A stretch of 64,000 nucleotides of DNA from Eledone cirrhosa (lineage: Eukaryota). A program made the translations under genes and the position numbers. The notes under the pieces are model-generated. The model had not been told where the DNA came from and did not search any database. It saw only the letters and a program-made list of their open reading frames with translations. Each line of letters starts with the position of its first letter. The stretch's first letter is position 1. Shown in pieces: positions 23,927-63,615 of this stretch. Location: NCBI GenBank assembly GCA_964016885.1, contig OZ024740.1, forward strand, positions 24,242,001 through 24,306,000, read 5' to 3'.

Positions 23927-23995
<69 letters not shown>

Positions 23996-24668: not shown

Positions 24669-24705
24669 ATTCCTTTCAACTAAACTGTATCCATTCAAAT
24701 CTTTC

Positions 24706-24741
<36 letters not shown>

Positions 24742-24788
24742 CAATAAGGTAGTATATATATATATATATATATATATACAATAAGGTA

Positions 24789-24832
<44 letters not shown>

Positions 24833-28180: not shown

Positions 28181-29643
28181 TTATTTATTTATTTATTTAT
28201 TTATAACTAAATGGCTCTGTTCCCTACATAGAGCACTCTCCTTTCCTTTAGCTTTCCTACGGAAACACTTCATATATATATATATACAGAGAGAGAGAGA
28301 GAGGAAGAGAGGGGGGAGAGTAAAAGGAAAAATGGACCAACGTTTAGTAGAAAAATATTTCCTATTTTCGATAACTATGTTTTTTTTTGTTTTTCTCTCC
28401 CTTTGACTGTTACTCAAAATTTTGTGTCGTATATAGACGAAAGGGTATGAATGTTTTGGCGCCATTTACACGATTTTCTTTGTTCTTTTCGTGTGTTTTT
28501 TTCTGTGTTGTTTCTTCCGATAATATCGCTATTAGACAAACTGATAAAAAGTTTCATATATTTATCGGTAACTGTTCTTTTTTATTTTTATTTCAGTTAG
28601 TTCCTTTTCGAATGTATCAATAAAAGATAAATAGTTAAAGATTATCTCACCTGGCAGTATTGCAGTACATTGTCTGAAATATATTAATACTGATAAAAAC
28701 AAAACGTTTTTCCTACTACGAATATGTACACGTAATTACTAACGTTCGTTCCGCCTGGTTTCAAATAATAAAAAAATGTTCTTCGGTTTTAATCACGAGC
28801 CCTATTAGATACACTGATATTGATGTATGGTCCTGAAATTACTGAGGGATTCGTAGGGGAGCTGCATACTCATACGGCATTTCTTGGGCATTTTTGATGC
28901 CTGGTGGGTCCACTATCCTCTCCAGGTCTGAATACAAAGGTTTCTTCCAGAGAAGGATAGAGAACGTGAGAATGGAAGTGGGAAAGAGGTATAGAGGAAG
29001 ATAATTGAACACAGTATTAGACTGGTACTATTTTTATTGACCTCGAATAGATGAGAGAAAAAGTTGACCTCGGCGTGATTTGAACGCAGACAGTAGAGAA
29101 TTGGAGCGAAAAAAGCAATACATTGTCCAGCATTCTAACGACTCCGCCAAATAAAACGCTAATGGAATTGATACTGATATTAATAATAATTGTTTCTACT
29201 TTTGGGAAAAGGCCATTAATTATCCCAGTGCGGAGTTATTGGGATGTTATTAAAGAGATCGTTTCGCAAACAAGTAGCTGTGGATTAAACCACGCTGCGT
29301 GCAGTTTGAGGCAAGTGACAGGTTTTGTATCCTCGGGTAAACCGTCTCTAAATTAAGGGATACTTTAGCAAGAACAGAAGCTACCCAAACAATGTGGTTC
29401 AGAACCAGCATGCAGGAGTTTTAACGAAAAAACAATTTAACCTAATAACAATTGTTTTGATAATCCACAGCAGAGAAAACAGGCTTTGCTAACATCAATG
29501 TTTCTCCATGTTACAAAGATCCATTATATATATATTACTTACACCAAGAACATTTTTTAAACCCCTTTTTTTTTTATTTCATTATATAATTTGATATGTA
29601 TAAAAAGTTGGTCATGCTAATTTAAACTGGTAACTCAAAATCC

Positions 29644-30154: not shown

Positions 30155-31046
30155 TAGAGTTGAGATGGAGGGTCTGTGGTTCTTCTCACATCTGGTTGGT
30201 CTTTGAATGTTACTTGTTTTATATGGAAAAAAGTGGCTCGAAACGCCAGGTTTTAGAGAAGTAATTTGATTGGTTGGTCAATAATTATAATAAATTTCGC
30301 GCCAGTTCGCGTTACAAAGTTCTTCAAACAAGGTGAGGGGGGAGGGGGGGGGGGGGGGGATCAGGTTGTTTTTTCATATATGAGTGTTTGAATTTCTTTT
30401 TACTTAAAAAAAGGGGCTCAGGAAGGCTTTTTTTTTAATAAACGTAATTTGATTGGTTATAAATGAAATTATGGGTGTCACGTGAAAGTTTTCATTAAAT
30501 TTCGCGCCCCTATTTGGAAATTTATTCTGTAGCCTATTTAGAGAATTTTATGACAAGCAAAAGATAATGGTCAAGAGAAATGGGATGGGAGAATTGTTCT
30601 GGTTCAGTGAATATGGTTAGTTCGTTGGGTGTCAGAATTCAGATTTTCTATAGCAATAAAGAAAGTAAAGATATGTATGTTTATTTGTGAGCTTGTGTGT
30701 GCGTGTATAGGAAGATGATTCTATTAGTAGAAATGGGGGAGGGAGTTGTGTGTGGGGGGGGGATGTGTGTGTATGGGTGTTATGTGTGTGTGGGAGTATC
30801 GTTAGCATGTTAAGAGGAAGAGAATATATGTATTGTGTGTGTCGGATAATGATTCCGTTAGTAGGAATATTTTTGAATGAACAAATTTTCCTTACTTATT
30901 CGTATTTGTTCTGTTGTATTGTCAGCGCAAACGTATGTTAAGGTTTATTTAGTTCGGGTTATATTTTTCTAAAGTAGCAGGTGTTATGTGTGTGTGTATG
31001 TGTCTATTTGGATGGTTAGCATGTCATGGTGTTGACATAATGTATA

Positions 31047-32196
31047 TTAAACCATATTTAATGCTGGTCTATATTTTTGAATAAACATATTTTCCTTATT
31101 TATTCGTATTTTTTCTGTTGTATTGTCAGCGCAGAGGTAAAATTGGAAGACTTTGGTGTCTTATTACTTGCGCATATGTCTAGATGTGCGGTTAGTGGTA
31201 TCTGTCTCGTGGTTGGATCTCGTAATTGTTGGCGATGAACTGTCATTCTGTTTCTGAGTGTGAGTATAGTTTGTCCTATATAATCTTCATTGCATCCTTT
31301 ACATTTAATGGCATAAAGTAGATTTTTTGATGAGCAAGTGAACTGATTTTTTACAGCAAAATTTTGTCCTGATTTAAATGTATCCGTGTTGCCTTCAATG
31401 AGGTGAGTGCAGGTTACACAATTAGAGCGACCACATTTTTTGAGAGCTGGTTGTGGGTTTGTGGTAGGTAATTTGGCATTGATGAGTAATGTTTTCAGTG
31501 ATTTCGGTTGTCTTTTGCTTTTGACTTTTTGTGTTTCAAGGGCTTTTTTCATTATTGGATCTTGTTTTAGTAGTGGAATGTTCCTGTGAATAGTGTTGCA
31601 AGCTTCCGCATTTCTTGGGTTGTGTTGAGATATATAATAGAATATTGGACGTACCTTGAATTTGTTTCTGTTTTCGTAATTCATCAATGTCTATTGCTTT
31701 AGCCCTTTCTATTCCATTATTTATTAGTAATGGTGGGTACTCTCTTTCGAGTAGAATTTCCTTTAATTCTTGAAGTCTTTTATTTCGCGTTTCATAATTG
31801 GAGACAATTGTGCAAATTCTTCTTGCTAGGTTAAAAGGAATGTTCATCTTCGTGTGCCTTGGATGGTTGGAGGTGAATAGCAGGTATTGGTTGGAATCTG
31901 TTGGTTTGTAGCGTATGTCAGTTTCAATATTTGTGTCTTTTTTTTACGATTAAGATGTACAGAAATGGGAGTTGATGTTGGCTGTATTCCATTGTCAATT
32001 GGATGTGGTCATTGATGCCGTTTATTAAGGTTTTGAAATCCTTCAGTTGGTCGAGTGTGTCGGACCAAAGAATGAGACAATCATCCAAGTAGCGTTTCCA
32101 ATTCTCTGATAAATATTTGGGGAAGTTCAATCCGTATTCTGATTTGGAATGTTCATATATCTGGATTTCTAAGTATGCCATGACTAAGTTGGCATA
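31047..32196 (-). pseudogene. Neptune-type PLE RT plus GIY-YIG remnant
   Basis: WKRYLDD, CGRSNCVTC, TCSSKNLLYAIKCKGCNEDYIGQT..LRNRM..H. Contains frameshifts. Confidence 0.9.
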
Positions 32197-33106: not shown

Positions 33107-33144
<38 letters not shown>

Positions 33145-33246
33145 GCCGTCGGGGTCATACTTGTTCCTATTACCCATTCTACTACCCTAAGTATTGAGTA
33201 TTTTGGTGCGTTATGGTCCATCTGGTTCCTTACCACATTTCCTTCG

Positions 33247-33308
<62 letters not shown>

Positions 33309-33569
33309 GGAAAAATGAAACGAAATTTCATCTGCCACTCTTAGTACAGCTGTTACTTAAATATAAGTATGTACACGTACATACATATATATATACAGAC
33401 GTACAGTAGTATGTATATGTATATACATACATGCACACATATATATATGTACGTATGGATTCACCGAACATTTATTATAATGCTCGGGTTGTTTGTAAAC
33501 AAACATCTCGTATTAGGCCGTCGTGTCTAGCAACCATCGTTGCTCGTTTGTTCAACACTGAAAAAGGAA

Positions 33570-33610
33570 CGCTGTACTAGTTTCAAGCTTATTAGCTATC
33601 GTCAGTAACG
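33570..33610 (-). ncRNA. Minimal type I HHR (inverted arm)
   Basis: CGTTA-CTGACGA-TAGC-TAATAA-GCTT-GAAA-CTAG-TA|CAGCG. Confidence 0.75.
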
Positions 33611-34057
33611 TATACCTACCTGCAAGATTGTTGAACGTTGAAGACGATAGCTAATAAGCTTGAAACTAGTACAGCGTTCCTTTGTCAGTGTTGAACAAAC
33701 GAGCAACGATGGTTGCTAGACACTACGGCTTAATACGGGATGTTTGTTTACAAACACGCCGAGCATTATAATAAATGTTCGGTGAATCCATACGTACATA
33801 TATATATATGTGTGCATGTATGTATATATATATACATACTACTGTACGTCTGTATACATATATGTATGTACGTATACATACTTATATTTAAGTAACAGCC
33901 GTACTAAGAGTGGGAAATGAAATTTCGTTTCATTTTATCCGTTTATCGTTTTCGGTGCACCCGGCCAATTAACTCAATCGATATGCAAATTGGGCTACTC
34001 AGCCGTTAATATGCATAAGGTAAGTATATACGTTCAACAATCTGGCAGGAAGGTATA

Positions 34058-34098
34058 CGTTTCTGACGATAGCTAATAAGCTTGAAACTACTACAGCG
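34058..34098 (+). ncRNA. Minimal type I HHR
   Basis: CGTTT-CTGACGA-TAGC-TAATAA-GCTT-GAAA-CTAC-TA|CAGCG. Confidence 0.7.
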
Positions 34099-34299
34099 TT
34101 CCTTTGTCAGTGTTGAACAAACGAGCAACGATGGTTGCTAGACACTACGGCTTAATACGGGATGTTTGTTTTCAAATACACCGAGCATTATAATAAATGT
34201 TCGGTGAATCCATACGTACATATAAATATGTGTGCATGTATGTATATATATATACATACTACTGTACCTCTGTATACATATAGTATGTACGTGTACATA

Positions 34300-34354
<55 letters not shown>

Positions 34355-37359: not shown

Positions 37360-37646
37360 ATACATATACGTGTTTTGCAACGGGTAAATTTGTGGCTCAA
37401 TGAAAAGTTAATAAATTAAATAATCAGAGCTATATATCATAAAACATGTCGATAGAATCACCAGATAAAATATATACCATTTCCTCTTCCAATTAGCATA
37501 ATTATGCTAATTGGGAGAGGAAATGGTATATATTTTATCTGGTGATTCTATCGACATGTTTTATGATATATAGCTCTGATTATTTAATTTATTAACTTTT
37601 CATTGAGCCACAAAGTGACGCGTTGCAAAACACGTATATGTATATA
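37360..37646. repeat. Near-perfect palindrome with no spacer (centre 37501/37502)
   Basis: ...CAATTAGCATAA|TTATGCTAATTG... The arm is also present as a direct copy at ~36793-36860. Confidence 0.9.
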
Positions 37647-38277
37647 TGTATATATATATATATGTAAACCTTTATATATATATATATATATATAACGAAG
37701 GAAATGTGGTAAGGAACCAGGTGGACCATAACGCACCAAAGTACTCAATACTTGAGGTAGTAGAGTGGGTAATAGGAACCTTTTGGCCCCTTTTGTTGAC
37801 CCGTCACCGTATCATTTACGTACTTATACCTCTTAAAAGGGTCCTTGCCTAATTCGTCCCACCTAGTTCTTTTACTTATTTCGTTATTTCTTTATTTATT
37901 TATTTCTTTACTTCTTTCTTTCTTTCTTTATTTTATTCTAGCCTAACAATAGCCTGAGACCTAGGTCGTAGAATTTAATTTACTTTACTTTTTTCTTTAC
38001 ACTTATTTGCTTTTCTTCACTCTCAGTACTTTTTCTTTCCTATTTCTACCCCCCATTGTTCTACCTACCGTTCCGACTTCCTCCCCCTCCCCCTCCCCTG
38101 TATCTTCTTTGACCTAATGCCCAGCTGTAGCTGGCACTACCAACGCTGGATTGGGTCTACTCCACCCCCTCCCCTCTTTCTCCTACTGGCAGGTTTAGCC
38201 ACCATCTCCCCTACTAATTTGCAACCACAGAATTACTACTGATTTTTGACAATCACTTTGACCATATATGGAATTAC

Positions 38278-38354
38278 CCCTTGAGAAGATCGGCTATTTA
38301 AATACCAGGATAAATTTTCATTTAGTCCAGAATTAGCCGTCGAAACGGCTTGAG
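38278..38354 (+). ncRNA. Type I HHR, U3-A8 variant, 54-nt stem II
   Basis: CCC-TTGAGAA-[GATCGGCTATT...AATTAGCCGTC]-GAAA-CGGC-TT|GAG. Other pieces of this pLTR family lie near 4200, 33140, 37695, 38910, 39055 and 63410. Confidence 0.6.
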
Positions 38355-38379
38355 CTCAGCTGTCGGGGTCTTACTGGTT

Positions 38380-38419
<40 letters not shown>

Positions 38420-38502
38420 GGAGGTGAGTTTTATTGTAGTACAATAAAGCAATGCAGATATCGGATAAGAAGCACTCTACAGTTTGTAGGACTGGAGTAT
38501 AC

Positions 38503-38809
38503 ATAATATAAGATCAAAAGATGGTTAAAGGAGTTCCATGTATTTTATTATGCGCATTTCAAAAACAAACATCATCATGCAATAATATTTGTGTTTTCAT
38601 AACATAAAACAGGAGAACATGATATGAAGGCTAAAGAACACTTGTGGATATGTTGATTTAAAACTGCACTATCCACAAGTGTTCTTTAGCCTTCATATCA
38701 TGTTCTCCTGTTTTATCTGATGAAAACACAAATATTATTGCATGATGATGTTTATTTTTGAAATGCGCATAATAAAATACATGGAACTCCTTTAACCATC
38801 TTTTGATCT

Positions 38810-38817
<8 letters not shown>
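38503..38817. mobile_element. Snap-back palindrome (148-bp arms) with HHR
   Basis: Arms 38503-38650 and 38670-38817. The left-arm HHR core is mutated. Confidence 0.85.
38711..38777 (+). ncRNA. Type I HHR, 36-nt stem II
   Basis: TTTTAT-CTGATGA-[..AAATATTATT GCA TGATGATGTTT..]-GAAA-TGCGCA-TA|ATAAAA. Confidence 0.82.
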
Positions 38818-38866: not shown

Positions 38867-39133
38867 CACGCACTCATACGTACAGACACGTATATATATA
38901 TATATATTCAAGCCGTCGGGGTCTTGAACGTTTTTCTATTTACCACTCTACTACCCTAAGTATTGAGTAGTCTGGTGCGTTACGGTCCACCTGCTTCCTT
39001 ACCACACTTCCTTCGTTATATATATATATATATATATATAAATATATATATATAACAAAGGAATTGTGGTAAGGAACCAGATGGACCATAACGCACCAGA
39101 GTACTCAATACTTAGGGTAGTAGAGTGGTAAAT

Positions 39134-39288
39134 AGGAAAAAGTATGACCCCGACGGCAGAGCTCAAGCCGCTTCGACGGCTATTTCTAGACTAAAATTAG
39201 AATTTTTAGCCTGGTGAATAAATGCTAATTTTAGTCCAGAAATAGCCGTCGAAACGGCTTGAGCTCTGCCGTCGGGGTCATACTTTTT

Positions 39289-39290
<2 letters not shown>
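39134..39290. repeat. Hairpin made of two inverted HHR 3' halves (38278 family)
   Basis: GGAAAAAGTATGACCCCGACGG...CCGTCGGGGTCATACTTTTTCC. The loop derives from stem II. Confidence 0.85.
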
Positions 39291-44719: not shown

Positions 44720-45533
44720 ATGTCTATGTATAAATGTATGTATGTATGTGTGTGTATGTCTGTATACATCTATGTATGGATGAATGCATGTATGTATGTA
44801 TGTGTGTGTGTTGGTATGTATGTATGTCCGTCTGTATGTATGTATATACGTATGTATGTATGCATGTATATATGTATGTATGTTTGTTTCTATGTGTGGG
44901 TATAGTGTGGTGTGCGGTCGCCGGAAGCTGGGGAGTGCTCGACCGGAAGAGTGCCCGACCGGAATGGCCAGCAGGTCGGCCTCTCTCTAGCGGTGATCAA
45001 ACGTGTATGTATATTTGCATATAAATATATACACACGCACATATATATATATACATGCACACACACACACACACACTCACTCACACACACATATATATAT
45101 GTATATTTATGTATATATAAACTCATATATGCATGTGTCTGTATAACTGCCTGTTTTTTTATGTCTGTCTATGTCCCGGTCTCCTCCCCCCTCTCTCTCT
45201 ATCTATCTCTTTACACATACCGTATTTGTCTAATTACATACAAGTATCTATACAGGTGTACATACAAAAATATAAAGACGTTTACACACATACGCCCGTA
45301 TATACACAAGCACACACACTCATACTCTTATTTCGCTTATTTGGCTCTGGTGGGTAGTGGCTTCTTAACAATCGTCTCAGTTTGTATGACCTTTTTAACT
45401 TATGTTTATAGCTCTGCTATCTTCTTCGTATCCATGGAGCGCTTGTCTACATATTACGGAAATTGCGTTTCGCTAATTTCTACCCGCCGAAATACGATTC
45501 TCGCTAAATTTATAATTAAATATACATATATAT

Positions 45534-45614
<81 letters not shown>

Positions 45615-45658
45615 TAAACAAATAATGAATAAACAATTCCTTATATTAAACATAAAAA

Positions 45659-45813
45659 TTCATTATTTAACGATCGTTTCTAGGGTATATATGTGTTATA
45701 ATTGGTATGCATATTCAACAGATCTATGTACAAAATTATACAAAATTATACAAATTATCAAGATTAAATATACATACCTAACACATATATACGCCGTCTT
45801 CAGAAATAATGAA
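45659..45813 (-). ncRNA. Type I HHR with 116-nt rod-like stem II (3' pLTR)
   Basis: Reverse complement of 57467-57621. Confidence 0.88.
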
Positions 45814-46638
45814 GTATATTTATTGATAATAACAACAATTCAAAATATCAGTTCAAAATTGACCAATGAAAACACAAAAGGGTTAAAAGCAGTTCGGTGT
45901 GTGTATATACATGTAAAATCCTTACACATATTTTACAAAAATGTGTGTATAATTTGTATACGCATACTAAAAAGATGGATGCAAACACAAAATTTCAAGG
46001 TTAATATCTCTGTAAGCTTAATGCGCTGATAAGATGCGCATTGATACTTATGGAGTCAAGCATATAAATATATTTTTTCATACTCACACATATCAGTATA
46101 ATCACACATACATGCGCGTATATGCATAAATATACACATAACCACGAACATACAAACACACACACTCCCCCACTCACATTTATATATGTGGATATAAAAT
46201 CATAAGCACATAGAAATTAAATCACTCACATAAAACACTGGCACACACATTTCAAGATCAAGATACAGAAATTAGGTGGGAGGGGGGGAGGGGTCAGTAT
46301 TCAATTGTCTGAGCAGACTGCCTAATATAAATGTATCTATAAATTAAGAAAAATAAAAAAAATAAAACAATAAAATATAATAACTATAATATAATATATA
46401 TACACATACAGATATATAAACACACATACATACATGTACGCACACATAGAGATATTTACGCATACACCCATACACACATACATATACAGTCATACACACA
46501 CATACACTTACACGAACATACACATACACATATAAAAAGATATATATATACACACACACACACGCGCAACACATACACACATACACATATATATAAAAAA
46601 AATAGATAATAAAGATATATATCCCTATATATATAAAT

Positions 46639-46687
<49 letters not shown>

Positions 46688-47010
46688 TATATACATACAT
46701 ATACATATACATACACATACATCTAAATATACATACACATACATACACACATACATGTACATACATGTACATACATATGCACCTACTTATACTCATATAT
46801 ATAAATACATACGCTTCCATAAATGTGTATATACATAAAAAACAATACAACCTCACCAAACTCAGACATACAAATAAAGATAATAATAAAAAATAATAAT
46901 AAAAAGGCATATGTATATACATACACACACGCATTAATAGATATATATATATATATATACACATACATACACATATATATATACATACACACACACATAT
47001 ATACACACAC

Positions 47011-47051
<41 letters not shown>

Positions 47052-47061
47052 CACATAGACT

Positions 47062-47098
<37 letters not shown>

Positions 47099-47547
47099 AT
47101 ATATATCCACACACACATACCACCATAAAAACACATACAAACACCCACATGTATATATATTTATATATATATATATCCATATACACACACGTACATATAT
47201 ATACATATATATACATACATATATATATATACACACACACACATAAAAAACAGACATGCACATATATATATATATATATATATATTTTATTACTCTTATA
47301 TATACACATATTATATATACATACACAACCTCACTTATACACATATACACATAAGTTATATTATAATAATAAAGAATAATATACATATATATATATACAT
47401 ATACATATATATATATGTATATATATACATACATACATACACATACATACATACACATAAACATATACATACATAAATACATACATACTAATAAAGACAT
47501 ATATTCACACATAGACACCTATATATATATATATATATATATATATC

Positions 47548-47598
<51 letters not shown>

Positions 47599-48748
47599 AC
47601 ACACACACACACACACAGACACACATACACACTCACATATATATATATATATATATGTGTATGTGTGTGTGCGCACATACACATATATACACACACACAT
47701 ACAAACACACACAAACACATACATATGCATACGTGCACACACACACACATATATCACATAGATACGAAGATAAACATATAAATAGAGAGACATACATATA
47801 TATACACAACACACATACACATACATACATACACGCATATACATATACATACATATATACACATATATATATTCATATATATACAAGCATACACATACAT
47901 ACACATATATACACATACATACACATATACATACAACACATTCACATACACACACATATATAATGCATATATATACATATATATACATACATATGTATGT
48001 ACAATCATATATACACACACAATCTTACATTCATATTTGCATGCTCATATATGTATTTCTATATTTAGATATAAATACCCAAACCTATATAGACACCTAC
48101 CTACATATATATTCATACATAGACGCTTACAAATACAGATGATAATAGTATGGGGGAAAGGGGGGGTTTGGAGAAGGGGATCAAAGTAAATATATGTTTC
48201 AAGAAACATATAATATTTTCCGTATCTTAATTCAATGTATGTTCTTACATACTTTCAGTGCTAGGAAATACGAAATCTATGCATCTCAAAATAAATAAGT
48301 ATACCATTAATCATATGCTAACTAAACCAAAGATAGCCAACATATTGATTTCTAAGGTGTAAATTAGTTAGGTTTATAATATTTGAAGCAGAATTTTGAA
48401 GTCAAACAGTAGTAGATTATTAATTACAGTATAACTAAATTAAAGTTAATAACGTTATGGTATCAATATTAGGAGATGAATTTAGTAATAGGGAAAAGAA
48501 ACCCAAATAAAAATAAAATAAAATAAAGTATTACATCGGTAGTAGCATATAAATTATATGTTAACTAAATTAAAAATTATATATTTATTACAATAGTATA
48601 CGTTAATTAGTATATGTTAATTAGGTATACAATACATAAAGCAGATATTGTATTTCATCAATAGCATAATATAATTATATGCAAATAGAAATCAAAATTA
48701 ATACGCATACATATACATATACATACACACACACATATACATACATAT

Positions 48749-48789
<41 letters not shown>

Positions 48790-49324
48790 CACATATACAC
48801 ATACATACATACATACAGATACACATACACAACACACACATATACATACACATATACATATACATATCTTTTTCAAAAAATTGCACAGAATATATTAACT
48901 AGGTATATATCCAAAACACATCCCATTCTATGATTACATGACATTCTGCAATTCGTCTGTATAAGGATACTAATTTTAAGCAAATTAAAATTAAAATTTT
49001 TAGGTTGATTAAAACTAAAACCAAATAATAAATATATTTCCAAAATGTATATTAATTATGTCTATAATACTAAAAATTATTTCTCCGTCATTGGAAACAT
49101 GATATTATTTTGCTATATTTTATCTGTAAAAGAATTATAATAAAAGGTTTAAATAAATTAAAATTAATCTATAAATTAAATTACTAAGTATATATTAGTA
49201 ATATTTAAAGGTTTTTCACAATTTATGATTACATAATATTTTCTCATCTGTAATAAAATATTAATTAAATTAAATTTATAGGTTAACTAACATTTAAATT
49301 AAATTAATTTCTAGAATAATGTTA

Positions 49325-51766
49325 TTAATTAGGTTTATAATATTTAAATGTTTTTTTTAGTTTATGATTACACGATATAATTAATTCCTGTCGTTTATTT
49401 AATAAGATATCCTTAGACTTCATTATTTCAAATAGTTCTTGGGAACATAATCTACATTCCTTTCTATTATTTTGATAAGGGGTGGCTCTTTTGAGCACAC
49501 TCCAGGTCAAATCATATTTTATATTCTTATTTTTATAACTATTAATTTTTTCTGCTAGAGATGTTGTATTAGCCAGTGCGGCATTTTTAAAACTATGCTT
49601 GTGGGTATTAAACCTTGTCTTAAAATTGTTAGAGGTAGCTCCTATATATGAGCAAATAGAATCTTTAGTTTTAACATTACATTTATAGACTATGTTGTTA
49701 ACAAGACAATTCCCTTTTAATGGGCAGTTTGTTTTGTTTCTACAGTTACATCCTTTCGTTAATTCTGTATTTGAGGAGATATTATTGTTAATTTGATGTA
49801 CTGGTGGTATACTTATGGTTTTCTTACATTTATATGCATTATATGCACTTATATTTTGTTTTATGTTATTTGTTGTAGAGTATGAGAATTTAACTGTAGA
49901 CCTATTTAAGATTTGATGGTATTTGTGGTTTGGCGGGAAGTTTTTCTCAAGGATATAAAAAAATTTTTTAGCAATATTATCCTTAACTTGTAAATTAAAA
50001 GGAGCATTATACCAAGTAACTCGTCTATTACGGTTTCTATGTTGTTTATTATTTTTATTATTTTTATAGGTTGTATCATGATTTTTACTAGGAGGATTAA
50101 TGTTAATGATCTCACCACAACTATTTTTAGTTATATTTGTAGATTTAGGTGTTTTATCTTTTTTATTAGGAGTTTTATTATTAATATTTATTATAGTTGT
50201 ATGATGAGTAGTTTTTTGAGGGTTACTATACTTTATATTAGAAGATTTAGTATTTTGGGGTATATTGTGGGTGGCATTTAGGTGTGTACTTTTCATTTGG
50301 TGTTTGTTGGTAATATTATGCTGTATGCTTTCAGTATTTTTAGTAGAAGGTATATACTCTAATCTATTTTTGTGGCCACTTCTATCTAGAGCTTCATTAT
50401 AAAAGGTCGCATTTTTATCAAATACATCTTGGTTAGAAGAAAGGTTAGAAATTCTAAGTGATATATTATATGCAAGGTTTTTAAGGATAGATTTAGGGTG
50501 ATTAGATTGTGAGTGTATGTAATGTAAGTTTTGGTTAGGTTTATGGTAAGGTTGGTATATACCCGTAGCTAAATCTAAAGTTATATCTAGGAAATTTACT
50601 ACTTTACTTGTTTTTTCAAAAGTAATATTAAGATTATAATAGTCTTTAAGGAAAGTTCTAATATGTTTTTTGTTTTTTTCGATTTCTGAAAGGCTAAGGT
50701 TGTTAGAAAGAAGAAGACAGTCATCACGATATAAACCACCTTTGAGGTGGGGAAAAGAGGCATTTATGTTGAAAAGGAGAAAGAGGCCCACAAGATCAGT
50801 AATTTGGGCGGAATCGCTTGAACCCATAGTAATATCAAAAAGATTACTGTATGTGTTTCTGGTCCAGTATTCATTCTGAAATTCAATAAGTGTTAGTCTA
50901 GCATGTGTAATAATGTTAATGTCATCCGAAGTTAAATTAGATCTATTTTTAGCAAATATTAATGCTTTGTTCAGGAGTATAGGTGATATAGAAGAATAGT
51001 AATTATCTATATCAAATTGTAGGAAAGAAGCAGAAGATTTACACCTAATATTTTTAAACCAGTTAATTACCTGGGAGGTGTTTTCCCAGAGTGGTAAAAT
51101 AACGTGTTTTCTTATTTGTGGGATGACTCTATCTAAAATTTTTTTGCTAATTATTCCAATATCTGATTTGGAGGGACATATAAGTCTAATAGAAGGATTA
51201 GAGTTAAAGTTAGATTTGTGATCTTTCAGGTTGAAGTGTGGTCTTTTCAATGCCAAAGGTTCAGTTCTATCTTCAATGTTTAGTTTTTTTACTATGTTGT
51301 GTGTTTTGTTGTTGATGTTGGTGAGTGACACATTATTAGATTTTTTATAATTTTTTCTGAGTTCTTTATATATGAACTCATTATAATGTTCAATATCCAT
51401 ATGATACAAGTTACCAGTTTTGTCCGAGTGGACATGGATTTTTTTAGACTTTTTTAGGTCCAATAGGGTAGAATCAAGGTCCTTTTGAAAGACGGATTTA
51501 TACTTTTTAAATTTGAGGTGTTTAATTAAATTAAAAAGGTCTTTCTCGAAGTCTTCAAGTAAAAAGTTGTGTGGTGGATTCTTGTAAGTATTGAAATCAT
51601 ACATATATTTCCGATCTGCTTTTTTAGATTTCCTATCGAAGTGGTAGGCTCTCCATCTAACCCTTCTGATAAAATTATTAGTTTTCTGAATCATAAGGAG
51701 TAAGAAGTCGTCCTTAGAAGGTATTGGTATGTTTTTTAAGGAGGTTCCTAAATATTGTTTTTCCAT
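49325..51766 (-). CDS. Penelope-like (Naiad-type) reverse transcriptase / GIY-YIG endonuclease, ~813 aa
   Basis: Uninterrupted ORF from the first ATG: SLKNIPIP, DKTGN, LKDHK..P.IRLI, FDIDNYY, MGS.DSA, LYRDD, VNFLD, WYNAPF, CNCRNKTNCPLKGNC, NIVY..YIG, RF..H, CRLC..E, LLNKR.E..CNH. Confidence 0.95.
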   Translation of the reverse strand: MEKQYLGTSLKNIPIPSKDDFLLLMIQKTNNFIRRVRWRAYHFDRKSKKADRKYMYDFNTYKNPPHNFLLEDFEKDLFNLIKHLKFKKYKSVFQKDLDSTLLDLKKSKKIHVHSDKTGNLYHMDIEHYNEFIYKELRKNYKKSNNVSLTNINNKTHNIVKKLNIEDRTEPLALKRPHFNLKDHKSNFNSNPSIRLICPSKSDIGIISKKILDRVIPQIRKHVILPLWENTSQVINWFKNIRCKSSASFLQFDIDNYYSSISPILLNKALIFAKNRSNLTSDDINIITHARLTLIEFQNEYWTRNTYSNLFDITMGSSDSAQITDLVGLFLLFNINASFPHLKGGLYRDDCLLLSNNLSLSEIEKNKKHIRTFLKDYYNLNITFEKTSKVVNFLDITLDLATGIYQPYHKPNQNLHYIHSQSNHPKSILKNLAYNISLRISNLSSNQDVFDKNATFYNEALDRSGHKNRLEYIPSTKNTESIQHNITNKHQMKSTHLNATHNIPQNTKSSNIKYSNPQKTTHHTTIININNKTPNKKDKTPKSTNITKNSCGEIININPPSKNHDTTYKNNKNNKQHRNRNRRVTWYNAPFNLQVKDNIAKKFFYILEKNFPPNHKYHQILNRSTVKFSYSTTNNIKQNISAYNAYKCKKTISIPPVHQINNNISSNTELTKGCNCRNKTNCPLKGNCLVNNIVYKCNVKTKDSICSYIGATSNNFKTRFNTHKHSFKNAALANTTSLAEKINSYKNKNIKYDLTWSVLKRATPYQNNRKECRLCSQELFEIMKSKDILLNKRQELIISCNHKLKKTFKYYKPN

Positions 51767-52108
51767 TGTGATATGGATGATGGACAATTGAAAGAGCTCA
51801 ACTAAATGTATATGGGTTTACAAAATCATACATATATATATGTTTATACATAAATATAAAATTAATACACACATACAGTACAAAAATACGAATATTTCCG
51901 TGAAAATAGGAGCAAAATTATGTAGATAAATCTACCAAGAGTTTACGGTAGTGTCCAATCCGTATGAAGAACTCAATGTATTCCGGATATCATGGAAAGA
52001 AGAGATGCAATGAAAATCCACTTTCGGTGAAAGACAAACGGTATACAGAGTCAAGATAAAATATTAAACAAATAATGAATAAACAATTCCTTATATTAAA
52101 CATAAAAA

Positions 52109-52263
52109 TTCATTATTTAACGATCGTTTCTAGGGTATATATGTGTTATAATTGGTATGCATATTCAACAGATCTATGTACAAAATTATACAAAATTATA
52201 CAAATTATCAAGATTAAATATACATACCTAACACATATATACGCCGTCTTCAGAAATAATGAA
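52109..52263 (-). ncRNA. Type I HHR with 116-nt stem II (5' pLTR)
   Basis: Same sequence as 45659-45813, upstream of the ORF. Confidence 0.88.
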
Positions 52264-52624
52264 GTATATTTATTGATAATAACAACAATTCAAAATATCA
52301 GTTCAAAATTGACCAATGAAAACACAAAGGGTTAAAAGCAGTTCGGTGTGTGTATATACATGTAAAATCCTTACACATATTTTACAAAAATGTGTGTATA
52401 ATTTGTATACGCATACTAAAAAGATGGATGCAAACACAAAATTTCAAGGTTAATATCTCTGTAAGCTTAATGCGCTGATAAGATGCGCATTGATACTTAT
52501 GGAGTCAAGCATATAAATATATTTTTTCATACTCACACATATCAGTATAATCACACATACATGCGCGTATATGCATAAATATACACATAACCACGAACAT
52601 ACAAACACACACACTCCCCCACTC

Positions 52625-54317
52625 AAAAACCTTGCATATAATATATCACTTAGAATTTCTAACCTTTCTTCTAACCAAGATGTATTTGATAAAAATGCGA
52701 CCTTTTATAATGAAGCTCTAGATAGAAGTGGCCACAAAAATAGATTAGAGTATATACCTTCTACTAAAAATACTGAAAGCATACAGCATAATATTACCAA
52801 CAAACACCAAATGAAAAGTACACACCTAAATGCCACCCACAATATACCCCAAAATACTAAATCTTCTAATATAAAGTATAGTAACCCTCAAAAAACTACT
52901 CATCATACAACTATAATAAATATTAATAATAAAACTCCTAATAAAAAAGATAAAACACCTAAATCTACAAATATAACTAAAAATAGTTGTGGTGAGATCA
53001 TTAACATTAATCCTCCTAGTAAAAATCATGATACAACCTATAAAAATAATAAAAATAATAAACAACATAGAAACCGTAATAGACGAGTTACTTGGTATAA
53101 TGCTCCTTTTAATTTACAAGTTAAGGATAATATTGCTAAAAAATTTTTTTATATCCTTGAGAAAAACTTCCCGCCAAACCACAAATACCATCAAATCTTA
53201 AATAGGTCTACAGTTAAATTCTCATACTCTACAACAAATAACATAAAACAAAATATAAGTGCATATAATGCATATAAATGTAAGAAAACCATAAGTATAC
53301 CACCAGTACATCAAATTAACAATAATATCTCCTCAAATACAGAATTAACGAAAGGATGTAACTGTAGAAACAAAACAAACTGCCCATTAAAAGGGAATTG
53401 TCTTGTTAACAACATAGTCTATAAATGTAATGTTAAAACTAAAGATTCTATTTGCTCATATATAGGAGCTACCTCTAACAATTTTAAGACAAGGTTTAAT
53501 ACCCACAAGCATAGTTTTAAAAATGCCGCACTGGCTAATACAACATCTCTAGCAGAAAAAATTAATAGTTATAAAAATAAGAATATAAAATATGATTTGA
53601 CCTGGAGTGTGCTCAAAAGAGCCACCCCTTATCAAAATAATAGAAAGGAATGTAGATTATGTTCCCAAGAACTATTTGAAATAATGAAGTCTAAGGATAT
53701 CTTATTAAATAAACGACAGGAATTAATTATATCGTGTAATCATAAACTAAAAAAAACATTTAAATATTATAAACCTAATTAATAACATTATTCTAGAAAT
53801 TAATTTAATTTAAATGTTAGTTAACCTATAAATTTAATTTAATTAATATTTTATTACAGATGAGAAAATATTATGTAATCATAAATTGTGAAAAACCTTT
53901 AAATATTACTAATATATACTTAGTAATTTAATTTATAGATTAATTTTAATTTATTTAAACCTTTTATTATAATTCTTTTACAGATAAAATATAGCAAAAT
54001 AATATCATGTTTCCAATGACGGAGAAATAATTTTTAGTATTATAGACATAATTAATATACATTTTGGAAATATATTTATTATTTGGTTTTAGTTTTAATC
54101 AACCTAAAAATTTTAATTTTAATTTGCTTAAAATTAGTATCCTTATACAGACGAATTGCAGAATGTCATGTAATCATAGAATGGGATGTGTTTTGGATAT
54201 ATACCTAGTTAATATATTCTGTGCAATTTTTTGAAAAAGATATGTATATGTATATGTGTATGTATATGTGTGTGTTGTGTATGTGTATCTGTATGTATGT
54301 ATGTATGTGTATATGTG

Positions 54318-54358
<41 letters not shown>

Positions 54359-55508
54359 ATATGTATGTATATGTGTGTGTGTATGTATATGTATATGTAT
54401 GCGTATTAATTTTGATTTCTATTTGCATATAATTATATTATGCTATTGATGAAATACAATATCTGCTTTATGTATTGTATACCTAATTAACATATACTAA
54501 TTAACGTATACTATTGTAATAAATATATAATTTTTAATTTAGTTAACATATAATTTATATGCTACTACCGATGTAATACTTTATTTTATTTTATTTTTAT
54601 TTGGGTTTCTTTTCCCTATTACTAAATTCATCTCCTAATATTGATACCATAACGTTATTAACTTTAATTTAGTTATACTGTAATTAATAATCTACTACTG
54701 TTTGACTTCAAAATTCTGCTTCAAATATTATAAACCTAACTAATTTACACCTTAGAAATCAATATGTTGGCTATCTTTGGTTTAGTTAGCATATGATTAA
54801 TGGTATACTTATTTATTTTGAGATGCATAGATTTCGTATTTCCTAGCACTGAAAGTATGTAAGAACATACATTGAATTAAGATACGGAAAATATTATATG
54901 TTTCTTGAAACATATATTTACTTTGATCCCCTTCTCCAAACCCCCCCTTTCCCCCATACTATTATCATCTGTATTTGTAAGCGTCTATGTATGAATATAT
55001 ATGTAGGTAGGTGTCTATATAGGTTTGGGTATTTATATCTAAATATAGAAATACATATATGAGCATGCAAATATGAATGTAAGATTGTGTGTGTATATAT
55101 GATTGTACATACATATGTATGTATATATATGTATATATATGCATTATATATGTGTGTGTATGTGAATGTGTTGTATGTATATGTGTATGTATGTGTATAT
55201 ATGTGTATGTATGTGTATGCTTGTATATATATGAATATATATATGTGTATATATGTATGTATATGTATATGCGTGTATGTATGTATGTGTATGTGTGTTG
55301 TGTATATATATGTATGTCTCTCTATTTATATGTTTATCTTCGTATCTATGTGATATATGTGTGTGTGTGTGCACGTATGCATATGTATGTGTTTGTGTGT
55401 GTTTGTATGTGTGTGTGTATATATGTGTATGTGCGCACACACACATACACATATATATATATATATATATGTGAGTGTGTATGTGTGTCTGTGTGTGTGT
55501 GTGTGTGT

Positions 55509-55591
<83 letters not shown>

Positions 55592-56010
55592 TGTCTATGT
55601 GTGAATATATGTCTTTATTAGTATGTATGTATTTATGTATGTATATGTTTATGTGTATGTATGTATGTGTATGTATGTATGTATATATATACATATATAT
55701 ATATGTATATGTATATATATATATGTATATTATTCTTTATTATTATAATATAACTTATGTGTATATGTGTATAAGTGAGGTTGTGTATGTATATATAATA
55801 TGTGTATATATAAGAGTAATAAAATATATATATATATATATATATATGTGCATGTCTGTTTTTTATGTGTGTGTGTGTATATATATATATGTATGTATAT
55901 ATATGTATATATATGTACGTGTGTGTATATGGATATATATATATATAAATATATATACATGTGGGTGTTTGTATGTGTTTTTATGGTGGTATGTGTGTGT
56001 GGATATATAT

Positions 56011-56047
<37 letters not shown>

Positions 56048-56057
56048 AGTCTATGTG

Positions 56058-56098
<41 letters not shown>

Positions 56099-56443
56099 GT
56101 GTGTGTATATATGTGTGTGTGTATGTATATATATATGTGTATGTATGTGTATATATATATATATATCTCTATTAATGCGTGTGTGTATGTATATACATAT
56201 GCCTTTTTATTATTATTTTTTATTATTATCTTTATTTGTATGTCTGAGTTTGGTGAGGTTGTATTGTTTTTTATGTATATACACATTTATGGAAGCGTAT
56301 GTATTTATATATATGAGTATAAGTAGGTGCATATGTATGTATGATTATATATCTAATTCTATGTATGAAGGTACATCTATATATATATGTATATATACGC
56401 GTGTATGTAAGTAGTGTGTGTATGTATCTATATGTCTATGTGA

Positions 56444-56491
<48 letters not shown>

Positions 56492-56592
56492 CGATGTGCG
56501 TATATGTATGTACATGTATGTACATGTATGTGTGTATGTATGTGTATGTATATTTAGATGTATGTGTATGTATATGTATATGTATGTATATA

Positions 56593-56641
<49 letters not shown>

Positions 56642-57808
56642 ATTTATATATATAGGGATATATATCTTTATTATCTATTTTTTTTATATATATGTGTATG
56701 TGTGTATGTGTTGCGCGTGTGTGTGTGTGTATATATATATCTTTTTATATGTGTATGTGTATGTTCGTGTAAGTGTATGTGTGTGTATGACTGTATATGT
56801 ATGTGTGTATGGGTGTATGCGTAAATATCTCTATGTGTGCGTACATGTATGTATGTGTGTTTATATATCTGTATGTGTATATATATTATATTATAGTTAT
56901 TATATTTTATTGTTTTATTTTTTTTATTTTTCTTAATTTATAGATACATTTATATTAGGCAGTCTGCTCAGACAATTGAATACTGACCCCTCCCCCCCCT
57001 CCCACCTAATTTCTGTATCTTGATCTTGAAATGTGTGTGCCAGTGTTTTATGTGAGTGATTTAATTTCTATGTGCTTATGATTTTATATCCACATATATA
57101 AATGTGAGTGGGGGAGTGTGTGTGTTTGTATGTTCGTGGTTATGTGTATATTTATGCATATACGCGCATGTATGTGTGATTATACTGATATGTGTGAGTA
57201 TGAAAAAATATATTTATATGCTTGACTCCATAAGTATCAATGCGCATCTTATCAGCGCATTAAGCTTACAGAGATATTAACCTTGAAATTTTGTGTTTGC
57301 ATCCATCTTTTTAGTATGCGTATACAAATTATACACACATTTTTGTAAAATATGTGTAAGGATTTTACATGTATATACACACACCGAACTGCTTTTAACC
57401 CTTTGTGTTTTCATTGGTCAATTTTGAACTGATATTTTGAATTGTTGTTATTATCAATAAATATACTTCATTATTTCTGAAGACGGCGTATATATGTGTT
57501 AGGTATGTATATTTAATCTTGATAATTTGTATAATTTTGTATAATTTTGTACATAGATCTGTTGAATATGCATACCAATTATAACACATATATACCCTAG
57601 AAACGATCGTTAAATAATGAATTTTTATGTTTAATATAAGGAATTGTTTATTCATTATTTGTTTAATATTTTATCTTGACTCTGTATACCGTTTGTCTTT
57701 CACCGAAAGTGGATTTTCATTGCATCTCTTCTTTCCATGATATCCGGAATACATTGAGTTCTTCATACGGATTGGACACTACCGTAAACTCTTGGTAGAT
57801 TTATCTAC
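52625..57808 (+). mobile_element. Inverted 5'-truncated copy of the same Naiad
   Basis: 52625-53782 encodes the identical C-terminal ~385 aa. It mirrors 45607-50482 apart from a 171-bp indel, and extends to the equivalent of 51920. Confidence 0.95.
57467..57621 (+). ncRNA. Type I HHR with 116-nt rod-like stem II
   Basis: TTCATTATTT-CTGAAGA-[..GTATATATGTGTTA GGTATGTATATTTAA...TTGAATATGCATACC..TAACACATATATAC..]-GAAA-CGATCG-TT|AAATAATGAA. 10-bp stem I, palindromic stem III. Confidence 0.88.
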
Positions 57809-57888
57809 ATATATATATATATATATATATATGATAAAGAACACAAGAGTGTCTACAACATCAAAATATATATATATATATTTTTTCA

Positions 57889-57968
<80 letters not shown>

Positions 57969-58062
57969 GTGGAACACTGGAAGGTAATATCCGTAGTGGT
58001 AGAGCACTCAGTCCAAGGGACGAGTTAGGTAGAAGTGGTTACACAACAGTTAGTTCACCATA

Positions 58063-58102
58063 CCGAGAGCAATTGTTTCACCTTCGCGGATCTTCAGCTC
58101 GG
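58063..58102 (-). ncRNA. Minimal HHR (U16.1 mutated to C, probably inactive)
   Basis: CCGAG-CTGAAGA-TCC-GCGAA-GGT-GAAA-CAATTG-CT|CTCGG. Confidence 0.65.
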
Positions 58103-58287
58103 GATGTGTATGTTTATAGGAACAGGAAGAACAACCGTACGAACGCGCATGCGCAGAAACTCGGTTACTTCACACAAGCAATACTAGACTGCGTGCGAGA
58201 GGTGTAAGGGAGATAACTGCGAAAGTCCGGAAAGTTTTTAGGTTGAAAATAAAATTTTAAAAAAATTAAAAATAAAATTACAAAGAA

Positions 58288-59050
58288 TCAGTCCGGAGCC
58301 TTGTAGTTATGCAATAGATGTTTGGTGGCGTGTGGACAACGTGTGAAAAATTCACTTCTCGTGTTTAGCCAATCACTATTGCGTAATCTCTTTAGGATAG
58401 TTATTCGTTCGTCAATACATAAGCCACACGTCGGATTTCCCCTTGCGTATGGCTTGGACTTAGTGATGGCTTTCCCTTGAATTGAATAGCCTATATTTGA
58501 GTCCTTGAGGTACCATACGTCGCTCGCGGGTTTCGTGGATGAACGTCTGTCCGGGTATCTGAAGGTAGACTGGTGGTTCAGGAAACGCTCCTTGAATCGG
58601 CCCTCCGCCATGCCCACATAGGATTTGACCTCCTGTGGTTTGTTTGGTCGGTTGGAAGTGACCACAACTTCATAGATTACAGCTGGTGTGTTGCATTGCT
58701 GTTGAAGGGGGCAAGCTTCAGGCTGGGGTGTTGCTCCTAGGGCTGCTGGTGAAGTGGGCCTTCATGTTCTTAGCGCAGGAGTATCCTAGTTTAACTTTGT
58801 GTCGGTTAAAGATGGAGCAGTATTTATGACCTATGGGGAAGTGTCTATCTAAGAGGGCTAGACATTTTTTTCCTACATTGGTTTTAACGTTGAGTGAGAA
58901 GGGAGGAGAGAACCAGATAGTTTGTCTATTGATGCGCTTACTTTTCTTAATGGTGATGTTGCTAGTAGGAGAGTAGGTGATAGGTTGTGAGAAGCCGCTG
59001 TTAGCCAACGCCGTGTTATAGTAGGGTGCCGCCCTGTCAAAGATAGCCTT
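58288..59050 (-). pseudogene. Naiad-type thumb plus GIY-YIG remnant
   Basis: IWFSPPFS.NVKTNVG..IFNRHKVKLGYSC; after a frameshift CPLQQQC..VIY..YVG..FKERF..CGLC..E..LNTRSE..CPH. Confidence 0.9.
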
Positions 59051-59198
59051 ATTTTCAACCTAAAAACTTTCCGGAGTTTCGCAGTTATCTCTCTTACACC
59101 TCTCGCACGCAGTCTAGTATTGCTTGTGTGAAGTGACCGAGTTTCTGCGCATGCGCGTTCATACGGTTGTCCTTCCTGTTCCTATAACCATACACATC

Positions 59199-59238
59199 CC
59201 GAGCTGAAGATCCGCGAAGGTGAAACAATTGTTCTCGG
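59199..59238 (+). ncRNA. Minimal type I HHR
   Basis: CCGAG-CTGAAGA-TCC-GCGAA-GGT-GAAA-CAATTG-TT|CTCGG. Confidence 0.82.
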
Positions 59239-59266
59239 TATGGTGAACTAACTGTTGTGTAACCAC

Positions 59267-59402
<136 letters not shown>

Positions 59403-60189: not shown

Positions 60190-60231
<42 letters not shown>

Positions 60232-60336
60232 GGGTGGGGTTGTGGTTATATAAAATGTAAACAGAAATAACAACACAATCGGTACAGAATATGGAAGAAA
60301 TATATTAGTATAACAATTGAAATAGCAGGATGATGG

Positions 60337-60372
60337 TCTTAACGTTTCGGACGCTAGTCCTTCATCAGAAGA
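60337..60372 (-). ncRNA. Minimal type I HHR in a solo pLTR
   Basis: TCTT-CTGATGA-AGGAC-TAGC-GTCC-GAAA-CG-TT|AAGA. Confidence 0.85.
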
Positions 60373-60506
60373 AAGAATGAGAAATTAGAAAGATTGAAGG
60401 GAAGGGTGGGTTGGAATTGGAAAACATGTTTATATACATATATTGAAATCGTGGAGAAATACTGAAACATATATATATATGTTTTACACTTTCTTTTAAA
60501 ACATTC

Positions 60507-63279: not shown

Positions 63280-63615
63280 TTTGTGTATGATATATAATAA
63301 GAAATCGTTTTGGTTGTTGATGACTTTAGGAATGTCCTTTTTTTTTTCTCTTGTCTTGTGGTATATATATATATATATTTATAATGAATATACATTATAT
63401 ATATATATATAACGAAGGAAATGTGGTAAGGAACCAGGTGGACCATAACGCACCAAAGTACTCAATACTTAGGGTAGTAGAGTGGGTAATAGGAACGTGT
63501 GTATATGTGTGTGTGTATGTGTGTAGGTATGTATGTATGTATTATGGTGTTAAAAATAAAACAAAACATAACACAGGAACGATAGAAAAACCACAGACCT
63601 TCCACCTCAACTCTA

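Follow-up and report, generated by a model that had tools for sequence, protein, structure and literature searches.

In a 64,000-nucleotide stretch of the Eledone cirrhosa genome (assembly GCA_964016885.1, contig OZ024740.1, positions 24,242,001 to 24,306,000 of the forward strand; hereafter the window, whose numbering is used throughout) we analysed a Penelope-like element (PLE) at positions 45607 to 57808, and found that its 5' untranslated region (UTR) carries a bulged hairpin, RCUC-[stem]-UN-GAGY-RCUY, twice. Each copy lies a few bases past one of the two ends at which the insertion meets its (TA)n target. By the sequence comparisons given below, this paired start-site hairpin is a well-supported and apparently undescribed feature. 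On balance we favour the reading that the locus is a recent insertion of a Hydra-clade PLE, primed twice, with the starts set by the paired hairpins. The focal element alone is ordinary; the hairpin in cis is what matters.

The insertion consists of two arms. Arm A (45607..52625, minus strand, 7019 bp) comprises a 5' pseudo-long terminal repeat (pLTR) and one 6450-nt unit, and stops at a short (proximal) site; arm B (52625..57808, plus strand, 5184 bp) is inverted, is 5'-truncated within the open reading frame (ORF) and stops at a long (distal) site. Arm B alone has a tail of 134 nt (57675..57808, plus strand), which equals 52055-51922, the start of the 5' UTR. The 3' ends of both arms point outward, into the left (45520..45608) and right (57809..57832) (TA)n target tracts. 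In target-primed reverse transcription, as established both for LINEs (long interspersed nuclear elements) and for PAc, a Poseidon element from Anolis, the 3' end of an arm is the start of the complementary DNA (cDNA). Hairpin copy 1 (51971..52051, minus strand; ACUC...UU-GAGU, with a 73-nt inner part) begins 5 nt after the short end and is present again in the tail, at 57679-57759 on the plus strand, and copy 2 (51796..51913, minus strand; GCUC...UU-GAGC, 110-nt inner part) begins 6 nt after the long end and stands 30 nt before the ATG. Lying a few bases 3' of the cDNA start on the RNA strand, the hairpin is placed where a binding site would be. The two copies are located at the unit's 5' end, 68 and 206 nt 3' of the site of cleavage by the hammerhead ribozyme (HHR), and copy 1 is part of the predicted fold (P 0.88-0.99).

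Past the short ends of the elements compared, the consensus reads RCUC, a variable stem, a 2-nt 3' bulge (UU in 17/26), GAGY and usually RCU. A fixed descriptor applied downstream of the HHR region matched 15 of 23 families, compared with at most 5 in 1000 trials of dinucleotide shuffling and 1 for the antisense strands. End position is a less circular test than the covariation counts, and it was scored for the window together with Hydra-type loci from other assemblies (locus L010, without a scorable end, was left out): a hairpin stands 1-8 nt downstream of 19 of the 23 insertion ends, with a mean chance of 0.059 and 0 of 200000 simulations reaching this result. Long ends precede a second hairpin copy in four cases out of five (the focal element, S2, L004 and L009). 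Among 26 hand-picked instances the lower stem swaps G-C with A-U and U-A with A-U, and the upper stem is paired in 83 of 104 cells, as against 51 with shuffled partners. In a 13-row alignment 97.8% of the cells are paired and two-sided changes occur in 5 of 7 pairs; this alignment beats all 500 shuffles, in cells paired and in covariation score, and all slid controls. A covariance model built from 13 instances found the second hairpin of S2, which was not in the training set and lies 3 nt after the S2 long end, hidden behind an inserted repeat. The model also found several tail-only insertions, likewise absent from its training set (at 28208, 37737, 63454 and L008 3431), and gave no match in the Poseidon-like element at 25616-27079 / 30694-32196. 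The hairpin is present in published Hydra consensus sequences, by eye twice at the 5' start of Hydra-1_Ajap. Within the open-access PMC/bioRxiv literature and Rfam no description of it was found, most subscription papers and Repbase notes being outside this scope. A pseudoknot or a shared second UACGGA motif in the tails was also considered, and only some window families carry it.

The geometry of the focal ends recurs among the 16 inverted pairs examined in the window. In 11 of them one arm ends at (TA)n and the partner runs 35-150 nt longer before its own (TA)n; the other five comprise two pairs of which one end is at or near (TA)n while the partner could not be scored, a decayed pair and two parts of compound insertions, and no clean same-site pair was seen among the 16. 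The short ends share 1-6 nt with (TA)n. Long-end copies with a 5' boundary at most about 12 nt from the first hairpin occur at 28208, 37737 and 63454 and at 3431 of locus L008, and L009 starts at its own first hairpin. The Hydra-type protein remnants of other window elements are 28-40% identical to the focal protein, and the focal non-microsatellite DNA gives no meaningful match to the other HHR-bearing elements of the window. One scan of bacterial genome bins yielded 14 loci (L001-L014) with relatives, which encode Hydra-type PLEs with hammerheads and (TA)n and whose contigs are probably host-animal contamination in the bins; short/long inverted arms were found there too, in L003 (two families) and L007.

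The preliminary description of this locus had proposed one insertion from two priming events on opposite strands. We consider it very likely that a single insertion was made by two priming events, a view backed by the 11 of 16 short/long pairs and the end-adjacent hairpins, and likely that the hairpin fixes the cDNA start; that both starts lay on one RNA molecule held by one complex is a view towards which we lean slightly. In the mechanism that we propose, the protein, with its reverse transcriptase (RT) and endonuclease (EN) domains, would bind the hairpin, of which the 5' UTR holds two copies, and its GIY-YIG domains would nick both strands of the (TA)n tract. Each free 3' end would pair over 1-6 nt with UA-rich single strand 5' of one hairpin and prime cDNA, so that the short start falls to one target end and the long start to the other, and the tail would equal the inter-hairpin distance. 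Both cDNAs would be extended back across the hammerhead and on into the unit's 3' end, halt at unrelated points and be joined head to head via minimal microhomology. The short/long pairing, together with the long arms that stop at the first hairpin, would fit one complex on one RNA.

Full-length progeny would depend on a circle formed by HHR cleavage and ligation, on a template jump into the 3' pLTR or on multimers made anew. The 3' end of arm A has neither hairpin and that of arm B only copy 1; because both hairpins occupy the unit's 5' end and no new 3' end ever receives copy 2, a linear transcript of the focal locus cannot template full-length progeny, and with read-through multimers alone the lineage would shorten each generation. 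No scar is left where the cleavage site is crossed, in any of the three cases, which fits a circle, homologous transfer or uncleaved RNA, and fits blunt end-to-end jumping less well. Among these routes we give the circle the most weight, at somewhat under an even chance, with a jump or strand transfer being distinctly less probable and multimers alone less probable again. In its fullest form, which we offer tentatively and hold to be doubtful, the proposal is that an undescribed, clade-wide tandem hairpin would dock a pair of RT-endonuclease molecules onto a single circular unit RNA and prime both target strands at once. If true, such a rule of two hairpins on a circle would explain the tail, the head-to-head inversion, the tail-only mini-insertions, the pLTRs and the need for hammerheads, and one intact ORF could mobilise unrelated hairpin-bearing non-coding elements in trans. 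The earlier suggestion that the focal element is a source of RT and EN for the non-coding derivatives is unsupported so far, as the derivatives are other families; the shared hairpin makes action in trans possible and does not show it.

A different account keeps the hairpin-set starts and has the arms come from two independent ribonucleoproteins, on two RNAs or on two repeats of an uncleaved multimer, with no role for the hammerhead. The 171-bp segment by which the arms differ within their 4.9-kb overlap speaks for it, as do the prediction that the HHR is off in long RNA, the use of unprocessed RNA by PAc in vitro (PMC11167929) and the scarless crossing of all three cleavage sites, as expected from an uncleaved template. 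Independent choice predicts, however, that about half of the pairs would be same-site, whereas the window has 11 of 16 short/long and no clean same-site pair; the long-end copies named above, which start at most about 12 nt from the first hairpin, suggest that the second DNA end was held on the same RNA; and a multimer-only route loses one unit per generation. We regard this account as unlikely. We find it improbable that there was one priming event only, with the inverted arm and tail added later by fold-back or self-priming, by a template switch in second-strand synthesis or by EN resolution. Published models do propose self-priming and EN-mediated resolution (Arkhipova 2013, PMC3846280; Craig 2021, PMC8557442) and several window elements have palindromic centres, but the 52625 junction is non-palindromic with 1 nt of homology, arm B carries 134 + 171 nt that are missing from the matching part of arm A, and both ends are at a fixed distance from an RNA-strand hairpin.

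Long, near-identical and microsatellite-rich repeats are hard to assemble, and the inversion might in principle be an assembly artefact or the collapse of two separate copies. To this we give very little credence: the arms differ at 5 places, the same geometry is found in 10 other pairs with diverged arms and in unrelated assemblies, the ends coincide with sites defined by a motif, and an overlap of 1 nt is not how an assembler joins sequences. The preliminary description also called the element a Naiad. The (TA)n targets, pLTRs and inverted 5' copy are indeed common to Naiads (PMC8557442), which are defined by an N-terminal EN and the lack of canonical HHRs (PMC8557442). In the focal element the EN is C-terminal, DKT stands in place of DKA, there is no CCHH and an HHR is present; the label is wrong because of the RT-first, EN-last order and the Hydra-clade motif set. 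The domain order rules Naiad identity out, and its probability is practically nil.

Several observations weigh against a two-primed insertion with hairpin-set starts. Hairpin copy 2 lies outside the minimum free energy fold (P 0.07), and 0.6 kcal/mol must be paid to force its formation. At 4 of the 23 ends (S5 twice, S9 and Sx) there is no hairpin, and two end pairs share one reference copy, which turns 19/23 into 17/21 distinct sites; the end descriptor was loosened after data inspection, and the rows of the covariation analysis were chosen by motif, so that its counts are to be read as support and not as a probability. The covariance model gives the focal hairpins no significant score (best overlap E 2.6), because their inner parts are long. 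The inner palindrome 37369-37634, part of a compound insertion, has both ends at one site, and so does L003 family a, within a larger inverted duplication; both are possible exceptions to the short/long geometry. The 171-bp difference between the arms fits two templates as well as one slip. The focal protein deviates at six positions that are at least 90% conserved in its homologues, including YRDD-C for YRDD-G (a C in place of G after YRDD is also found in 3/116 homologues). The predicted stem I probability of the HHR falls from about 0.6 to at most 0.014 once at least 50 nt of 3' sequence is present; for PAc, HHR cleavage was dispensable for insertion in vitro, and no RNA ends were reported at the cleavage site (PMC11167929). 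In PAc the choice of start site also did not differ between the strands (PMC11167929), whereas the focal ends pair a short with a long one.

The ORF (49325..51766, minus strand, read from 51766 to 49325) encodes the 813-aa protein of the preliminary description, with the YRDD (residues 346-349) and all GIY-YIG residues that were claimed for it. It consists of a telomerase-like RT (approximately aa 1-475), a disordered insert, a CxCX5C linker and, at the C-terminus, a GIY-YIG domain, with the RT motifs at 252-349 and the EN at 692-801. Hydra-type motifs are found at RWR(37), DKT(115), CxCX5C(673; C673-C675-C681), CxxC(771) and CxH(799), and the EN residues C771/C774, E777, N790 and C799/H801 are present. 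Absent from the protein are CCHH in the EN (the mark of Penelope/Poseidon, Neptune, Nematis and Naiad; here one Cys follows IVY and one precedes YIG, without a CxxC pair), GxKF/Y, and the CX2-5CxxC linker. The N/T/K-rich in-frame insert (50042..50338, minus strand; aa 477-575) contains 21 N among its 99 residues, and its predicted local distance difference test score (pLDDT) is <50 over aa 477-571. Among 7999 candidates scored, 116 homologues were obtained at E <= 1e-3, 32-48% identical. The RT precedes the linker in all 78 of these 116 that have both motifs, RW[KR] occurs in 70/116 and [AS]DK[TS] in 105/116, and the catalytic residues D252, D348, D349, Y694, Y707, G709, R718, H722, E777 and N790 all agree with residues that are near-invariant in 98 homologues. 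Compared by eye, the Hydra-1_Ajap N-terminus agrees with the homologues' consensus.

The AlphaFold model of the protein (99 sequences) has a pLDDT of 86.5, low only at aa 477-571 and 657-667. Its top matches among PDB structures are telomerase reverse transcriptase (TERT; Foldseek E 1.5e-8), and in VIA a TERT scored Z 16.1 (rmsd 2.8, 256 aligned), tied with the RT of a diversity-generating retroelement and a second TERT. The TERT-like fold covers model residues ~4-480, and the whole-model search covered well only residues 53-482. For the EN domain, a model built from the single sequence was of poor quality (pLDDT 49), and a dimer prediction for residues 1-470 scored 0.00, which speaks neither for nor against a dimer. 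Pfam gave 0 families for the 813-aa protein, with weak matches to GIY-YIG in 3 of the 29 aligned members and none for the query itself; a profile search of PDB sequences gave a single, unrelated match (E 0.27). The Hydra clade is defined by the motif set found in the focal ORF (PMC8557442), and on its sequence the element almost certainly belongs to this clade of PLEs. It is a new member with an already known layout, and it is best called coding-competent, a term that we use in place of the earlier "probably active".

The 12-kb inverted structure was confirmed by self-comparison of the window, in which 45606-46176 matches 52056-52625 in direct orientation, 45606-50485 matches 57674-52622 in inverted orientation, and 51919-52625 matches 57811-57105, again inverted, at 100% identity. 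The pLTRs are those of arm A on the 5' side (52056..52625, minus strand, 570 bp) and on the 3' side (45607..46176, minus strand, with one T more than the other two), and that of arm B (57105..57674, plus strand), identical to the 5' pLTR of arm A. The roughly one-base difference reported between the two direct pLTRs is thus an indel in a T run, and the location of both outer ends in (TA)n was likewise borne out. The inverted copy of about 5 kb is joined at 52625 as described, through a shared A, and the identity of its encoded protein holds for residues 430-813 only: the truncated ORF of arm B (52628..53782, plus strand) encodes 384 aa identical to arm A, without a start codon and without the RT catalytic motifs. 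The head-to-head junction (52622..52629) shows 1 nt of microhomology, the A at 52625 by which the arms are joined, and is non-palindromic. Between the stop codon and the pLTR lies a spacer of 3148 bp (46177..49324, minus strand), AT-rich and microsatellite-rich with 23% GC, which is probably captured host DNA. Within the 4.9-kb overlap, what sets the two arms apart is 1 substitution, 3 indels of 1-2 nt and the 171-bp segment, besides the 134-nt tail. The extra segment of arm B (56331..56501, plus strand) lies between 11-bp direct repeats, and its reading as an intron was rejected, since the GT-AG register is absent on both strands.

With 1 substitution in ~4.9 kb between the arms, the insertion is by this measure young, which supports its earlier description as a young and intact PLE; gene conversion or assembly polishing could also homogenise inverted arms. 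The left flank, 45405-45520, is the long end of an older hairpin-bearing element, as is 22495-22606 for the insertion at 22652, and the right flank faces a long end at 57966, new copies being stacked in the (TA)n of older ones. Read-through from either flank would give a 4.9-kb fold-back RNA, a likely trigger of silencing.

A complete type I HHR core is present in all three pLTRs: in the 5' pLTR at 52109..52263 (minus strand, cleavage between 52119 and 52118), in the arm A 3' pLTR at 45659..45813 (minus strand, between 45669 and 45668) and in arm B at 57467..57621 (plus strand, between 57611 and 57612), with 52118, 45668 and 57612 as the predicted first bases after cleavage. These positions and the HHR-to-HHR unit of 6450 nt (52118..45669) agree with those first proposed; with the 3' region of arm B the unit measures 6623 nt. 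The ribozyme has a 10-bp stem I, CUGAAGA, a 116-nt stem II region, a C.A at 10.1/11.1 and a palindromic stem III. Among 5000 shuffles of the pLTR none matched with a stem I of at least 10 bp and 4 gave any match, and the isolated HHR folds with z = -7.8. Directly 3' of the cleavage site a competing hairpin (52070..52118, minus strand) takes the stem I 3' strand in longer RNA; in the folding, what captures that strand is another copy of the stem I sequence, located 40-49 nt downstream. The competing hairpin was also considered as a general switch; in most of 17 families stem I is predicted to pair little even in short RNAs, and the reading applies to the focal element. Given these folding predictions, the HHR would have to cleave during transcription or with the help of protein; protein was required by the Poseidon HHR (PMC11167929). 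Rfam gave no hammerhead for the window among the 150 of 321 matches listed, all of them miRNA-like hairpins below the gathering score, and for six loci its matches were miRNA hairpins (6/6), with neither the HHR variant nor the start-site hairpin matched. Between the cleavage site and the ORF start (51767-52118) there are seven upstream ATGs, and translation from an uncapped or circular unit would therefore need a non-scanning route.

The window contains further insertions of related kinds. Six unrelated HHR-bearing ones (5686-7789, 11950-16417, 16686-18824, 22652-24708, 38417-38817 and 57966-59271) have head-to-head arms with short and long (TA)n ends; each has a hairpin after the short end, and three hold Hydra-type ORF remnants (6488-7696, 23183-23659 and 58288-58948). 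A small non-coding family (38912-39290, 33144-33247, 37695-37779, 63412-63496, 4189-4308 and 38296-38381), with palindromic, single-arm and tail-only copies in (TA)n, combines half a hammerhead, with a long helix III, and the hairpin, and is a candidate non-autonomous Hydra derivative. Tail-only insertions at 28200-28275 and at L008 3420-3500 consist of one hairpin plus ~35 nt between simple repeats. The sequence at 13315-13523 is a dispersed repeat of ~190 bp (also at 3941, 9317, 9664, 41419, 62908 and 63127), inserted, with ~18 bp duplicated in direct orientation, between hairpin 2 of the S2 family and the site of its long end. At 24716-24815, short inverted copies of the 13-15 bases flanking the opposite end of the 22652-24708 insertion (~22590-22605) are mixed with (TA)n, possibly through a template switch onto target DNA. 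One HHR-bearing family (33306-34306 and 18876-18971) has short/long ends and a 55-nt tail without the RCUC/GAGY hairpin; its ends lie ~230 nt from the cleavage site, and it follows a different recognition rule.

At 1729-3532 there is a near-perfect palindrome of 1.8 kb, with a degenerate hammerhead core in each arm and a 35-nt tail without the hairpin. The inverted 1.5-kb copies at 25613-27079 and 30694-32196 represent a decayed canonical PLE (GIY-YIG E 6e-5, with a Cys pair within the EN), 9772-11729 holds a broken non-LTR retrotransposon RT (Pfam RVT_1 E 8e-9, DUF6451), and 4584-4812 and 60192-60424 are copies of a dispersed small element with a compact hammerhead-like core and a (TA)n end. 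Among the loci of other assemblies, the hammerhead and tail at L008 4774, 10812 and 11430 match, by eye, the Hydra-2_aMil row and consensus in the supplement of PMC8557442. The L002 contig, with identical 141-bp ends (1-141 and 2395-2535), is one unit with two hairpins before the ORF, and is probably an assembler loop over tandem copies rather than proof of a circle. At L005 6245 (minus strand) a pLTR copy ends 7 nt past the predicted cleavage site, far from any hairpin or (TA)n.

PMC8557442 treats as open how PLEs come by their tails and head-to-head inversions, and only one PLE has been reconstituted (PMC11167929). A short hairpin that covaries and stands at a set distance from each end yields a direct prediction, testable by mutation, of how an RT sister to telomerase chooses its start site, and the focal locus offers an intact ORF and both hairpins for testing end formation. 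Paired hairpins would probably explain the back-to-back insertions of these elements. For annotators the hairpin also serves as a rule by which Hydra ends, tails and non-autonomous derivatives can be recognised. The question of the circle becomes sharper too, as the hairpins sit at a place that is of no use to a linear transcript from a normal copy.

Published accounts of PLEs already include pLTRs, hammerheads, an inverted 5'-truncated arm, a tail on one side and (TA)n targets. Hydra-clade elements (PMC8557442; Hydra-1_Ajap, Hydra-2_Amil and Penelope-13_HM) have the same domain order, HHR in the pLTR and (TA)n targets, the RWK-type, DKT, CxCX5C, CxxC and CxH motifs and no CCHH; Penelope-13_HM carries a 5'-truncated inverted copy at its 5' end, as the focal element does (PMC8557442). 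The focal element differs in its 99-aa N/T/K-rich insert and in its HHR, with the 116-nt stem II region and the C.A at 10.1/11.1. Its unit of 6450 nt is longer than the Hydra norm of "generally <3 kb" (PMC8557442) because of the 3148-bp spacer, and its tail measures 134 nt as compared with the 30-40 bp described for PLEs (PMC8557442). The text of PMC8557442 gives no matches for hairpin or stem-loop. Naiads share the pLTRs, tandem and inverted insertions, tail and (TA)n preference, and have as features of their own the N-terminal EN, CxC, DKA, CCHH (two Cys lying between GIY and YIG), a CX2-5CxxC linker, IFD and the lack of a canonical HHR (PMC8557442).

Penelope of Adineta vaga (PMC3846280) resembles the focal element in its two direct pLTRs plus an inverted one, one-end tail and microhomology-mediated deletions, and also in a captured spacer before the 3' pLTR (Pen1_Av, 0.9-1.5 kb) and N-rich in-frame inserts between RT and EN. 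It differs in that its structure was explained by self-priming on an antisense template, often with palindromic junctions (PMC3846280), whereas the focal junction is non-palindromic and the spacer measures 3.1 kb. The PLE hammerheads and non-LTR retrozymes (PMC4209133, PMC7229834) likewise have a type I HHR with a palindromic helix III. Cleaved HHR units were proposed in 2014 to be ligated to circles for more-than-unit reverse transcription (PMC4209133), and RtcB circularises retrozyme monomers in vitro (PMC7229834); the retrozyme circles were shown at 170-400 nt (PMC4209133, PMC7229834), compared with the 6.4-kb coding unit considered here, and the available portions of both papers describe no start-site element. 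Parallels in end formation come from PAc (PMC11167929), which has two internal start sites, a tail equal to their spacing, nicking and extension on both strands, an AT-rich target and an HHR upstream of the start sites. PAc belongs to another clade and starts in an AC-rich stem-loop inside the ORF (PMC11167929), and the RCUC/GAGY hairpin was not seen, by eye, in its template as given in Fig. S1 of that paper; in the focal element, each start has a 5' UTR hairpin of its own.

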